Origin: Escherichia coli
Lineage (GTDB): Bacteria; Pseudomonadota; Gammaproteobacteria; Enterobacterales; Enterobacteriaceae
DNA: 64,000 nucleotides
Assembly: GCF_017348835.2 (NCBI RefSeq)
Contig: NZ_CP071375.1
Reading direction: 5' to 3' (one strand)
Shown here: piece by piece, positions 22,457 through 34,085 of the stretch
Layout of the letters: each line of letters begins with the position of its first letter
Position numbering within the stretch: the first letter of the stretch is position 1
Notes under the pieces: generated by a model
What the model saw: only the letters and a program-made list of their open reading frames with translations
Told to the model about the DNA's origin: nothing
The model's database searches: none
Made by a program: the position numbers and the translations under genes

Positions 22457-22591
22457 ATGGCAAAGCCGATCATCACGCTCAATGGCCTAAAAATCGTCAT
22501 TATGTTGGGAATGCTGGTCATTATTCTCTGCGGTATCCGTTTTGCCGCCGAGATCATCGTGCCGTTTATTCTCGCATTATTTATTGCTGTT
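22457..22591 (+). pseudogene. tqsA: 5' fragment of tqsA (AI-2 exporter, AI-2E family), first 45 codons ([12 protein letters not shown]...FILALFIAV); the frame runs into the inserted element and stops within ~30 nt
   Basis: The coding sequence continues in frame only at 34085 ([15 protein letters not shown]...); 11.5 kb of foreign DNA lies between. Confidence 0.85.
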
Positions 22592-22593
22592 AT
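22585..22593. other. attL core, left copy of the junction direct repeat TGCTGTTAT
   Basis: Identical 9-mer at both island/tqsA junctions; tqsA-derived sequence on the left, island sequence on the right. Confidence 0.6.
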
Positions 22594-22667
22594 ATATAAC
22601 TTATTTCACTTAACGCATTGATTTAATTAAATAATTTGCACCACAAAAAGTGCCAAAAATCGCAAAA

Positions 22668-22690
22668 TGACTACACCAGTGACTACACCG
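22668..22690. repeat. Putative integrase arm-type site (TGACTACACCAGTGACTACACCG), left copy; an internal GACTACACC doublet
   Basis: 23-bp exact direct repeat of 33927..33949, with further imperfect similarity for ~40 bp downstream (GAAACAACGTGGAACAA vs GAAACAAGCTGGAACAA). Confidence 0.55.
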
Positions 22691-22800
22691 TTCGGTGCAC
22701 CGTATGAAACAACGTGGAACAAATAGACACAAGAAATATACAGGCGGATCATCTTTCCAGGGGGAAGCGCACCAATTCATGAGGGGCGTTAATGTCGATA

Positions 22801-23203
22801 TGGGGATCCCCACCTACCGGAATTTTTTTCCGGTTAAACGTTAATCAGGCTGGTGGGCTTTACCTGTTCGGTAGGTGTTATGATTATCGTAATACCTTTC
22901 CCCCAATGGGGTAAAAGCATCAACCGTAACGAAAGTCGTTATGGTTGCCACCGATACCCCAAATTTGGGTATCACGAGTAAGCCCCAAAATCTGGGTGTT
23001 ACTCTTACTACCCAAACTACGGGTAGTTTCCGTAGTTTCATGGTCGAGTTGCAGATCTGCAACTCCCCCATTAACCACAGGCGAATTTCCGCCTTCGGTC
23101 ATTCCTTAATCATCTGCGTAATCATAATGATTATTCAGCAAGCGCAATTTTGCGCTTTGCTTAAAGTTCAGCGAGTTACCGCGCCGACTTCCTCAAATTG
23201 AGG
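22801..23203. repeat. Non-coding region packed with at least seven distinct perfect palindromes
   Basis: TGGGGATCCCCA 22801..22812; CCGGAATTTTTTTCCGG 22817..22833; CCCAAATTTGGG 22958..22969; AAACTACGGGTAGTTT 23014..23029; GAGTTGCAGATCTGCAACTC 23046..23065; AAGCGCAATTTTGCGCTT 23140..23157; CCTCAAATTGAGG 23191..23203. Confidence 0.7.
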
Positions 23204-23319
23204 TTTCCGAAAATATCAGCGGGTTAGCGATTAAGCTGACCATTAATTAAACTGCGAAAATGTCGTAGTTGTGAGGGGTGTAGCCAACCCATTTTTGGGC
23301 CGTCGGGAATATCAACCAG

Positions 23320-23601
23320 TTACCGCCGCAACCGCTCCGGCTTCTTCCAGTGGTACGTTATTTTCTCCTTCTCCCGATACATCTCCACGCGGCGACGGTA
23401 GGCCAGCAACTCAAGAACTCTGGTTCGTATGTTGCGCATATCCACGGCATTAAGTTCTATACCATCACGGCGCATCACCTCCGCAACAACACGCGCATAA
23501 TTTTCAGCGGTCACGCTGTCCGGCTGCATGGCCTGTTCGTCAACCTGCTGGCTGATTCCGGCAACGCGGCGGATTAATCCCAGTATTTCGGCTTCTATCA
23601 T
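23320..23601 (-). CDS. Hypothetical protein (93 aa), last gene before the attL-proximal non-coding region
   Basis: ORF in the same orientation as the rest of the island genes; no family recognised. Confidence 0.4.
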   Translation of the reverse strand: MIEAEILGLIRRVAGISQQVDEQAMQPDSVTAENYARVVAEVMRRDGIELNAVDMRNIRTRVLELLAYRRRVEMYREKEKITYHWKKPERLRR

Positions 23602-23654
23602 TGTGCCCCCATCGTTCTGAAAGTCTGGTGTCGTCGGGTCCTTCCTGGAATTAT

Positions 23655-23840
23655 GGCCCGTTACGGGGCGGCGACCTCGCGGTTTTTATCTGTTTATGAA
23701 AATTTTTCTGGAAAAAGCATGTCGGTACTTCTCGAACATAACTATTTGTTTTTAAATAGATACACAATAAAAAGAAACGACACGGTAATCATCTAAAATG
23801 GCGATTTATGACGCTTTCATGTCGTTTCTCAGTTTTGTTC
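23655..23840 (+). other. Lambda-like cos site, left copy, plus orientation: cosN (GGGCGGCGACCT at 23666..23677) followed by cosB-like R2 and R1 elements
   Basis: GTTACGGGGCGGCGACCTCGCGGTTTTT...TTTATGAAAATTTTT matches my recollection of the phage lambda cos region; R2-like AAAAGAAACGACACGG and R1-like TGTCGTTTCTCAGTTTTG sit at lambda-like spacing. Confidence 0.65.
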
Positions 23841-23856
23841 AATAATTGCGCGTCTG

Positions 23857-31934: not shown

Positions 31935-31962
31935 GCGGCTCCATTTCGGGGCCGCTTTTTTT
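31935..31962 (+). terminator. Intrinsic terminator of the plus-strand small-gene transcript (GCGGCTCC ... GGGGCCGC followed by TTTTTTT)
   Basis: 8-bp stem with one G-U pair, followed by a U-run. Confidence 0.6.
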
Positions 31963-32108
31963 ATGCCTGAAAAACCCCAATTTTGTGGTTTTCCAGTCTC
32001 ACCAGGGCGAACGAATCCCCGCCCACGTTCTGGCGTATATTCAATCTTCATGGTTATAGCTCTGTGTTCAGATGATTGATGTGTGGCGGCTGTGTGCCGC
32101 CAGCGTGA

Positions 32109-32297
32109 TTAATGAACTGCCTTGCAGCTATCCTTCCAGGCCAGAACCTCGGATAAAGACCAGCCAACGGAACGACCGCCAAGTTTACGACGTGATGGGA
32201 ATTGTCCGGCCTTTTCCAGGCGGTAGCGGCATGAGCGGCTAAGGCCTGTTAGCTTTTCGCATTCTTTTTCACGTATAAACCGATCAGTGCTTAACAC
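32109..32297 (-). CDS. alpA: AlpA-family transcriptional regulator / excisionase-like protein
   Basis: 62 aa, MLSTDRFIREKECEKLTGLSRSCRYRLEKAGQFPSRRKLGGRSVGWSLSEVLAW, a typical AlpA HTH. Confidence 0.8.
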   Translation of the reverse strand: MLSTDRFIREKECEKLTGLSRSCRYRLEKAGQFPSRRKLGGRSVGWSLSEVLAWKDSCKAVH

Positions 32298-32456
32298 TAT
32301 TGCCCCCTTTCGTTTCTTAAAGAGTTATTTCGTGTTCTATTGCGTTGGGATGTGTCTGATTGTGTCAGGATGATTCAGAGTTGGCAAATGTTGAGGTCGT
32401 ATGGTTTACAGAAACAGGAATAATCAGGATAAAATCATTTAAATTCATGTTAATAC

Positions 32457-32490
32457 AAAGGCATAAAATATTGTTTCATGCCTTTTTTCT
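32457..32490 (+). terminator. Plus-strand hairpin with U-run (AAAGGCAT ... ATGCCTTT TTTTCTC) in the alpA-int intergenic region
   Basis: Read directly from the sequence; there is no annotated plus-strand gene upstream. Confidence 0.45.
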
Positions 32491-32671
32491 CGCCATTTAA
32501 AGAGTGATTCGCTAGTGTATAAAAAACCAGTAACACATTAAAAATCAGCCACTTATAAATCCGTACACTTTTTCGCCTCTTGTTCGTAGTTGTTCCGCAT
32601 TGTTGCTCATTGTTGCATGTTGTATCTGTTCGCATATCCAGTATGCGCATACTGAAAAAACACGAAAAAAA

Positions 32672-33901
32672 TTATTTTCTTCTGGCTACTGGTAGCGTGG
32701 TTACGTTTTCATGTGTTCCCGCCAGTATCCCTAACCGCTCCGTCCACATATCCAGCGCATTGCGTTTAGCATCCAGATAACGGGAATGATTATAAACTCG
32801 CTGCATTCCTGGCATCTGATGACCTGTAAGCTGCTCCACGACATGCGGATCAACGCCTAAATCGTTCAGCATGGTTGTAAAGGTGCGCCGGATGTCATGC
32901 AGTGACCAGTGAGGATGATTAAGCCTCCTGTGCGCTAATCTTCCATACTGCGATACGCTGGCCTCCTGTTTCGCTTCCCCCAGCAATAAGCCCGTGTGCC
33001 TGTTCTGCTCCACCAGCTGCGTGACGAACGGCAGGATCGCTTCCGGTATGGGCCGGAATATTGCGACCTTCGTTTTGCTGTGCTCCTTCGGAACGGTCCA
33101 TAGCATTTCCGTAAAATCCCACTCCCCGATCTCCGATAGCCTCAGTTCTACCGTCCTGGCTCCGAAGACAATCAGGAGGCGGATTAACGCGACGTAGTAA
33201 GGGGAAAATATTTTTTTGTCCAGTGCCTGCAATAATTCGCCAAGTTCTTTGTTACTTAAGACACGTTCGCTTATATCCGGTTTTTTCCCAACGTCCGCCA
33301 CGTTCAGATCGTCCAGAACGTTGCTGATTGCATAGCGCCGCCTACGGCAGAACTTAAGCGCCTGTTTGCACGCCTGTAGCACGAATCCGGCAGTAACAGG
33401 CGTTCGCTTTGCCACCTGGTCAAAACAGGCCAGCCAGTGCCGTAGCTCGCATTTATCCAGCGGCATAGCACCAATCTGCTGTATTACGTGATTATTAAGT
33501 CGCCTTTTCAGGGCGATATAATCCACGCGGTTTTCCTTTACGTAATACTCAAGCCAGTAGGTGAGCGCATCGCCAACCGTTACGGGCTTTAACGCTTCCT
33601 GTACGGTGTAATTCATCTCATGACGTGGATTTTTCCCCTCAGCCAGCCATGTGCGACACTGTGCGGCTTTTTCCCTGGCTGCTTTCAGGCTCAGATCAGG
33701 ATAACTTCCCAGCTTAATGCGTTCGGGTCGTGTCTCCCTTCCCGTTCCGGCCCTGTATGTGAAATACCAGGTCAATTTCCCTGATGTTAAATATTTCACG
33801 CTCAGGTTTCCGCCATCACTATAAAACGTGTTTTTCTCCGCTGGCTTACCATGAAGTTTCCTTAGCAAGGTATCGCTCAGTTTGTTCATTGCTCTGCTCA
33901 C
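32672..33901 (-). CDS. int: Tyrosine integrase, P4-like family
   Basis: 409 aa; N-terminal P4-type arm-binding region (GKLTWYFTYRAGTGRETRPERIKLGSYPDLSLKAAREKA) and a C-terminal catalytic domain (HDIRRTF...Y); adjacent to attR. Confidence 0.85.
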   Translation of the reverse strand: MSRAMNKLSDTLLRKLHGKPAEKNTFYSDGGNLSVKYLTSGKLTWYFTYRAGTGRETRPERIKLGSYPDLSLKAAREKAAQCRTWLAEGKNPRHEMNYTVQEALKPVTVGDALTYWLEYYVKENRVDYIALKRRLNNHVIQQIGAMPLDKCELRHWLACFDQVAKRTPVTAGFVLQACKQALKFCRRRRYAISNVLDDLNVADVGKKPDISERVLSNKELGELLQALDKKIFSPYYVALIRLLIVFGARTVELRLSEIGEWDFTEMLWTVPKEHSKTKVAIFRPIPEAILPFVTQLVEQNRHTGLLLGEAKQEASVSQYGRLAHRRLNHPHWSLHDIRRTFTTMLNDLGVDPHVVEQLTGHQMPGMQRVYNHSRYLDAKRNALDMWTERLGILAGTHENVTTLPVARRK

Positions 33902-33926
33902 GTTTTACCCCCTCTTTACGAAAAAG

Positions 33927-33949
33927 TGACTACACCAGTGACTACACCG
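33927..33949. repeat. Putative integrase arm-type site, right copy (TGACTACACCAGTGACTACACCG)
   Basis: Exact 23-bp direct repeat of 22668..22690. Confidence 0.55.
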
Positions 33950-34076
33950 ATCGTTGCACAAAGGGCTACAACGTGAAACAAGCTGGAACAAGGAAAATCA
34001 CAAATCTGTTGATAATCAAAAACATAATGCACAGCCTGAAACATTATGAAACAGCAAAAAACACTAAATGATAAAA

Positions 34077-34085
34077 TGCTGTTAT
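34077..34085. other. attR core, right copy of TGCTGTTAT
   Basis: Island-to-tqsA junction; tqsA sequence resumes in frame. Confidence 0.6.

Follow-up and report, generated by a model that had tools for sequence, protein, structure and literature searches.

An 11,492-bp insert that interrupts tqsA in Escherichia coli is, with a probability that we put at about 0.9, a phage-inducible chromosomal island (PICI) of the EcCICFT073/EcCI042 family, a variant that carries a gene for a small terminase subunit (TerS) and sits at the published tqsA attachment (att) site. The insert lies in the stretch of chromosomal DNA analysed here (64 kb of contig NZ_CP071375.1, referred to as the window) and is 100% identical over its full length to part of NZ_CP114128.1 from E. 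coli strain PE164, a pig isolate; we refer to it as the PE164 copy. The identification rests on exact boundaries, a published att core, and collinearity with EcCICFT073, EcCI042 and a PICI of E. coli O157:H7. The element is thus already known in kind: it belongs to a family described in 2018, of which it is an ordinary if slightly damaged member. A preliminary description of this DNA had recognized a satellite-like integrative element in tqsA and had regarded its gene set as lying outside all described families; the first of these propositions is borne out by the att cores and the split gene, and the second is not, as the same content is already present in published PICIs at tqsA.

Sequence reading and a repeat search both place copies of a 9-bp core, TGCTGTTAT, at the two ends of the insert, and the coordinates given earlier (22585–34085) prove exact to the base: they begin where the left core begins and end where the right core ends. 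The size of the insert is the start-to-start spacing of the two copies. tqsA is divided into a 5′ fragment (22457–22593) and a 3′ part (34086–34983), and joining the sequence left of attL to that right of attR restores an uninterrupted tqsA reading frame, the break falling after about codon 46. The core is the reverse complement of ATAACAGCA, the published att core of the tqsA PICIs EcCI042 (11 kb) and EcCIK1516 (11.4 kb) (Fillol-Salom 2018 ISME J, Table S1; PMC6092414). The insert is also of the size expected of a Gram-negative PICI (about 8–15 kb) and, like these islands, occupies a specific att site that is unused by prophages and has a direct-repeat core. Just inside each end the repeat search found one copy of a repeat, with 76% identity between left and right arms over 76 nt; we infer that these GACTACACC-containing arm repeats are integrase arm-type binding sites. 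The flanking chromosome is the ordinary asr-ydgD-mdtIJ-[tqsA]-pntBA region, there is no tRNA gene in the window, and the G+C content of the element is not distinctive.

Gene families were assigned with PHROG, Pfam and the Prokaryotic Genome Annotation Pipeline (PGAP), the PHROG scan covering the 20 main open reading frames (ORFs). The order is int-alpA-ylcI-icd-four small ORFs-DUF4222-RepA helicase-iterons-83 aa-ssb-perC-two small ORFs-capsid-decoration-137 aa-cos-terS-cos-93 aa, with every gene except ylcI on the minus strand, int at one end and alpA next to it, as in the PICI layout (Table 1). These assignments and the iteron count confirm the P4-type integrase, AlpA, P-loop replication protein with iterons and single-stranded DNA-binding protein (SSB) of the preliminary description, which also named a gpE-like capsid protein, a gpD-like decoration protein, a Nu1-like TerS and a lambda-like cos, all of which hold up in the comparisons with lambda given below. 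About ten small ORFs had been thought to lack a recognizable family; all fall in PHROG families of unknown function, and PGAP provides Icd-like, DUF4222, PerC and YlcI/YnfO names. Likewise, no portal, protease, large terminase (TerL), tail or lysis gene was found by the PHROG scan and PGAP, including among ORFs previously called hypothetical, and the largest unassigned gap (about 725 bp, in the left arm) is too short for a portal, protease or TerL gene. The same list of absences had included a scaffold, and here it is contradicted by the 137-aa ORF discussed below.

Table 1. Features of the tqsA element, in window coordinates.
Feature	Coordinates	Strand	Evidence or remark
attL core TGCTGTTAT	22585..22593		Junction of tqsA 5′ fragment with element
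Left-arm repeat, GACTACACC x2	22664..22739	+	Direct repeat of 33923-33998
Conserved 93-aa protein, last gene of element	23320..23601	-	phrog_1561, E = 1.2e-54
cos2	23635..23840	+	cosN 23666-23677
terS, Nu1-like small terminase	23857..24398	-	phrog_57, E = 3.3e-48; Pfam Phage_Nu1
cos1	24400..24574	-	cosN 24532-24543; upstream of and co-oriented with terS
137-aa homolog of Nu3/gpC-type scaffold C-terminal domain	24605..25018	-	phrog_1999; C-terminal part of phrog_53 profile
gpD-like head decoration gene, disrupted	25031..25430	-	PHROG, PGAP, alignment to intact orthologs
gpE-like major capsid protein, 351 aa, intact	25442..26497	-	phrog_29, E = 1e-106
Conserved 68-aa protein, directly upstream of capsid gene	26497..26703	-	phrog_3255; PGAP
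Conserved 74-aa protein	26955..27179	-	phrog_1957
PerC-family transcriptional activator, accessory gene	27306..27578	-	PHROG, PGAP
SSB	27589..27999	-	phrog_44, E = 1.4e-36
Conserved 83-aa protein	27996..28247	-	phrog_1231
Predicted replication origin	28259..28449		Two AAAAGTGAGG iteron sets around an A+T-rich stretch, directly 3′ of rep
RepA-family (AAA_25) P-loop replication helicase/initiator, 468 aa	28448..29854	-	phrog_2850, E = 1.6e-190; Pfam AAA_25
DUF4222 protein, four small conserved ORFs, Icd-like protein	29851..31234	-	Collinear with EcCICFT073
YlcI/YnfO-family small protein	31429..31608	+	Divergent from main operon; PHROG, PGAP
AlpA-type regulator/excisionase	32109..32297	-	phrog_2790, E = 1.7e-17
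Tyrosine integrase, 409 aa	32672..33901	-	Pfam Arm-DNA-bind_3 (P4-type arm-binding), Phage_integrase
Right-arm copy of 76-nt repeat, GACTACACC x2	33923..33998	+	Just upstream of int
attR core TGCTGTTAT	34077..34085		tqsA frame continues directly after

The claim of an unusual gene set failed on its premise that a capsid gene is lacking from Gram-negative PICIs. Of 29 reference PICIs of this group, 21 have a major capsid gene (PMC10111431), and a terS homolog is carried by some (PMC6092414). The PICI model of SatelliteFinder has five components, namely int, a regulator, pri-rep, capsid morphogenesis and terS, and of the elements with the full set, termed Type A, 97% are in E. coli (PMC10085698). 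By PHROG and Pfam homology all five functions are present here, the RepA helicase being a protein that may or may not match the pri-rep profiles, and none of the functions that the model forbids (tail, holin, portal, head-tail connector or adaptor) was found by the same means. The element shows synteny and homology with the reference PICIs, with a nucleotide identity to EcCICFT073 and EcCI042 of 90–99% outside one cassette, and the element has helper-type cos sites, two inverted lambda-type cosN sequences placed as in EcCICFT073 and EcCI042.

The replication region is also of the PICI kind. Six copies of the iteron CCTCACTTTT (with at most one mismatch) occur within 190 bp just 3′ of rep, and only four in the rest of the window; the whole-window total of 10 compares with about 3.9 expected and was reached in no shuffle. 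Gram-negative PICI origins are described with the same layout of iteron sets and an AT-rich region (PMC6092414 Fig. 2 legend), and the element thus appears from its sequence to have an initiator and iteron origin of its own. The perC gene is among the accessory genes listed for EcCI042 and EcCICFT073 (PMC6092414), and the 93-aa gene holds the equivalent place in EcCICFT073, EcCI042 and the O157 PICI. No defence system was matched by PADLOC among ten small ORFs, NCBIfam gave no hit for any of ten proteins tested, and Rfam returned nothing for the whole element at E ≤ 0.1.

The integrase shares 91% identity with its counterpart in EcCICFT073 (4931–6160 of that locus). Despite this identity the att cores of the two elements differ (GGACATATTT at ycfD-phoQ for EcCICFT073, TGCTGTTAT in tqsA here), and about half of the differences between the two proteins fall in the first 60 residues. 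Between ylcI and alpA, PGAP marks a partial pseudogene (31520–31967, minus strand), a remnant also present in EcCI042; a 263-aa ORF that overlaps it (31260–32051, minus strand) looks spurious.

The packaging region contains two exact copies of the lambda-type cosN, GGGCGGCGACCT, in opposite orientations, that form a 72-nt inverted repeat (81% complementary) bracketing terS. The cosB side of cos1 is specific to the element and has GGTGG repeats as well as the palindrome ATACACCAAC/GTTGGTGTAT. That of cos2 shares about 90% identity with cosN-I2-R3-I1 of phage 21, followed by R2/R1-like boxes. A further cosN-like sequence, TGGCGGCGACCT, with one mismatch, is present at 56547–56558 in chromosomal DNA far from the element and is probably a chance match. 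A megablast search of the element against a phage collection matched only a cos segment of about 95 bp and one piece of about 70 bp, and the element is thus not a deposited phage.

The Nu1-like TerS is 37% identical to lambda Nu1 and aligns with it from residue 28 through to residue 180. The Pfam Phage_Nu1 match spans residues 33–148 only, leaving about 30 N-terminal residues outside it. In Nu1 the C-terminal end is the region that binds gpA, and the winged-helix DNA-binding motif lies in the N-terminal region, within the first 30 or so residues. Since the protein is Nu1-like through its C-terminal end, whereas its DNA-binding N-terminal end has diverged, with the first 30 or so residues outside the Pfam match, TerS may, by analogy, couple to the TerL of a helper but read a private cosB beside its own gene. 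BLASTP found no similarity between TerS and RppA, the protein that takes its place in EcCICFT073, so, at the level of sequence, Rpp cannot be described simply as a diverged TerS.

To compare the two arrangements, the region from the 137-aa gene to the 93-aa gene was aligned in four elements and the identity was taken per segment. The outer flanks, including each cosN, are 90–99% identical in all pairs, both within and between types, whereas the segment between the cosN sites is 90–99.7% identical within a type and only about 36% identical (unalignable) between the TerS and Rpp types. The inverted cosN pair is found at the same positions in all four, and the boundaries of the divergent segment (23678–24531 here, about 850 bp; 14571–15297 of the EcCICFT073 locus) coincide exactly with the two inverted cosN sites. 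Given this contrast between flanks and interior, the cosB-terS/rpp-cosB segment behaves as a swap cassette bounded by inverted cosN repeats, and these repeats may be its recombination boundaries.

Upstream of this cassette is a block of capsid, decoration and scaffold-like genes, which are standard cargo of the EcCICFT073/EcCI042 family. The capsid protein shares 44% identity with lambda gpE across 328 aligned residues, and for the decoration protein the intact ortholog shows 36% identity to lambda gpD. A protein of known structure, PDB 3BQW (‘putative capsid protein of prophage’, 351 aa), which we take to be from strain CFT073, is about 95% identical to the capsid protein. The c1499 product of EcCICFT073 is a capsid protein equal in length to the 351 aa of 3BQW (PMC6092414).

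The 137-aa protein is linked to scaffolds by profile-level hits. It matches the C-terminal part of phrog_53, the gpC/Nu3-type protease-scaffold profile, and among 1.8 billion representative proteins it has only two remote relatives, of 195 aa and 270 aa, both of which score as head scaffolding or capsid assembly proteins and whose C-terminal domain corresponds to the 137-aa family. There was no Pfam or NCBIfam hit and no significant BLASTP match to lambda Nu3, and a PDB sequence search gave nothing meaningful for this protein or for TerS. An AlphaFold2 model built from a shallow alignment of eight sequences is all-helical, with a predicted local distance difference test score of 46.5, too poor for a fold search. 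As judged from these profiles, the protein is a Nu3-type scaffold C-terminal domain. Some NCBI records name it ‘phage head-tail connector protein’; as there is no Pfam or NCBIfam hit and the profiles favour a scaffold domain, this label is probably wrong.

Ratios of nonsynonymous to synonymous substitution (dN/dS) relative to the O157 PICI copy are 0.15 for the capsid gene and 0.15–0.25 across the capsid gene, the 137-aa gene and terS, and from the sequence comparisons we conclude that purifying selection acts on the capsid, decoration and scaffold-like genes. Three terminator-like hairpins of nearly the same sequence (GCCGGAG..A.CCGGC, then a T-run) stand on the minus strand at 24577–24603, 26913–26939 and 27277–27303, after the 137-aa gene, the 74-aa gene and perC respectively. 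They suggest that read-through or anti-termination is needed for the capsid block to be expressed.

The life cycle that we propose is drawn from work on the family and from homology with EcCICFT073 rather than from the PE164 copy. In EcCICFT073, induction by a helper via AlpA, function of pri-rep-ori, cos-dependent packaging and interference with the phage have been shown (PMC6092414); RppA binds the phage TerS and re-targets it to cosB of cos1, which the Rpp-TerS complex recognizes (PMC6739421). By extension, a lambdoid cos-type helper phage would turn on alpA, AlpA would drive the leftward operon, and Int and AlpA together would excise the element at the 9-bp core. The RepA-family helicase and SSB would then replicate the circle from the iteron origin to yield concatemers, and the element's own Nu1-like TerS would recruit helper TerL to cos1, with its lambda-type cosN and private cosB, so that satellite DNA is packaged in heads and tails made by the helper, at the expense of the phage. 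Rpp, in the same slot of the Rpp-type relatives, does this job by re-targeting phage TerS. The phage-21-like cos2 may in addition allow direct packaging by a 21-type terminase.

Several points weigh against the PICI reading and the life cycle attached to it. A literature search turned up no experiments on any TerS-type cos PICI of E. coli, so that the step from TerS to TerL is an analogy with the TerS of Staphylococcus aureus pathogenicity islands (SaPIs) and with Rpp. No intact helper was identified, the only neighbouring prophage examined being the defective Qin remnant, whose integrase gene occupies window positions 1–1254, next to rspB. With its truncated large terminase, insertion sequences and many pseudogenes, alongside nohA, Qin is not a plausible helper. 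Deletion of c1499 or c1500 did not relieve phage interference by EcCICFT073 (PMC6092414), and PICI capsid genes are reported to be unnecessary for helper-assisted transfer (PMC10111431), which together leave the part of the capsid genes in the proposed mechanism unexplained; a literature search for later work on PICI capsid or decoration genes found nothing. Finally, PGAP annotates two genes of the element as frameshifted. terS has a 1-nt deletion in the A-run at 24371–24377 (A7 here, A8 in the intact gene), and the decoration gene has a 64-bp insertion, two extra copies of a 32-bp unit (25253–25363), that is unambiguous on alignment with two intact orthologs. The intact gene has one such unit bracketed by a 15-bp direct repeat, CCGCTGATGCTGGCG, and the triplication looks like an inactivating replication slippage.

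The PE164 copy may therefore be impaired, given a broken decoration gene and an N-terminal frameshift in terS, and an alternative explanation is that it is a member of the PICI family in decay, an immobile remnant no longer packaged efficiently. The two lesions speak for this explanation, and no other complete E. coli genome has a copy at least 99% identical. Other features argue in the opposite direction. The int, alpA, rep, ssb and capsid genes, both cos sites, the iterons and both att cores are intact, an in-frame ATG at codon 11 leaves terS an ORF of 170 aa of the intact 180-aa protein, PICI capsid genes are reported to be dispensable for helper-assisted transfer, and phage interference was not relieved by deletion of c1500, the decoration gene of EcCICFT073. 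Moreover, the terS lesion may be an assembly error, as it lies in a homopolymer and two ordinary chromosomal genes, ynfF (9102–11524) and ynfM (18244–19496), are likewise annotated as frameshifted; either the strain is gathering pseudogenes or the assembly has indel errors. The 64-bp insertion is probably not an error of this sort. On balance we regard decay to immobility as possible but unlikely.

We see very little room for the proposal that the element is what decay has left of a lambdoid prophage, with the greater part of the genome lost. The lambda-like character of E, D, Nu1 and cos, together with the defective lambdoid Qin about 20 kb away, could be read in that way, but the order E-D-Nu3C-cos-terS-cos is unlike that of lambda, no A, W, B, C, tail, lysis or immunity gene has left a remnant, the genes are under purifying selection, and the compact 11-kb architecture is intact in hundreds of genomes, at several att sites unused by prophages. 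An equally improbable view, that a lambda-type E/D/Nu1 set without portal, protease and TerL defines a new satellite family apart from P4-like satellites, PICIs and capsid-forming PICIs (cf-PICIs), correctly lists the gene content but founders on the prior publication of that content, order, size, att site and att core as PICIs, and on the nucleotide identity to EcCICFT073 and EcCI042 reported above.

Returning to the element as a PICI of the TerS type, we determined how common such elements are among 5,426 complete E. coli genomes. The attL junction in tqsA recurs in 244 of these. At least 80% of the whole element is present in 170 genomes. The terS of the present element (at least 80% covered) is found in 758, the PICI capsid gene (at least 80% covered) in 597, and rppA-like sequence in 97. 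The TerS cassette is thus about eight times commoner than rppA-like sequence, and the common type of PICI appears to be the uncharacterized TerS type, with the studied Rpp type in the minority.

As a discovery the element carries little weight: its family of satellites was described in 2018, and hundreds of members were catalogued in 2023. The gains are modest: the TerS type is commoner than the studied Rpp type, the cosN pair marks the edges of the cassette exactly, and the capsid, decoration and scaffold-like genes are under purifying selection although PICI capsid genes are reported to be dispensable for transfer. The role of these genes is a matter for the family as a whole and not for this locus. 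A further reading, which we offer as a long shot, is that the capsid/decoration/Nu3-C trio of TerS-PICIs builds satellite-specific or mixed capsids with their natural helpers and, separately, that the cosB-terS/rpp-cosB cassette is exchanged between elements by recombination at the inverted cosN. The natural helpers would then be phages other than lambda or phi80, and the trio would co-assemble with, or replace, helper shell proteins on the portal and protease of the helper. If the trio does act in this way, TerS-type PICIs would be a functional intermediate between classical and capsid-forming PICIs.

Comparison with known systems places the element as follows. A cf-PICI such as EcCIEDL933 has in common with it the int-alpA-pri/rep left half and a capsid gene; cf-PICIs add protease, portal, head-tail connectors, HNH and TerL in an HK97-type packaging module, and we found no portal, protease, connector, HNH or TerL gene among the ORFs. 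No ORF belongs to the Sid/Psu/Delta or alpha primase-helicase families of P4-like satellites, and the capsid is of lambda E/D type and the cosN of lambda/21 type, as against the P2-type cos of those satellites. SaPI-type PICIs follow the same logic, in that their own TerS redirects helper TerL and the Ccm of SaPIbov5 is a satellite homolog of a capsid protein, but they use headful (pac) packaging, are Gram-positive and are unrelated in sequence; Ccm also redirects capsid size, whereas EcCICFT073 DNA is packaged in full-size capsids.

Among the Gram-negative PICIs, the prototype EcCICFT073, with helpers lambda and phi80 and the RppA mechanism, has in common with the present element the small-ORF block, ssb, perC, capsid, decoration, 137-aa and 93-aa genes and two inverted cosN sites. 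It differs in its att site and core, in a 584-aa primase-family replication protein in place of the 468-aa RepA/AAA_25 helicase, and in having a 144-aa RppA where the present element has TerS. The O157:H7 PICI at ycfD(roxA)-phoQ (for example in strain F1273; EcCIRM12579-like) has both the RepA helicase and the TerS cassette, with 90% identity between the cosN sites and 97–98% in terS from codon 11. Neither terS (180 aa) nor the decoration gene (111 aa) is broken there, and they represent the state of the PE164 genes before damage; this PICI differs in att site and in a cos2 cosB that, unlike that of PE164, is not phage-21-like. EcCIK1516, as published, matches in its insertion site, core and size. 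EcCI042 matches in site, 9-bp core and gene order, including the RepA helicase, and is 11 kb to the 11.49 kb of the present element; it differs in having a 144-aa Rpp gene between the cosN sites where terS stands here, with flanks that are 90–93% identical and a cassette that is about 36% identical.

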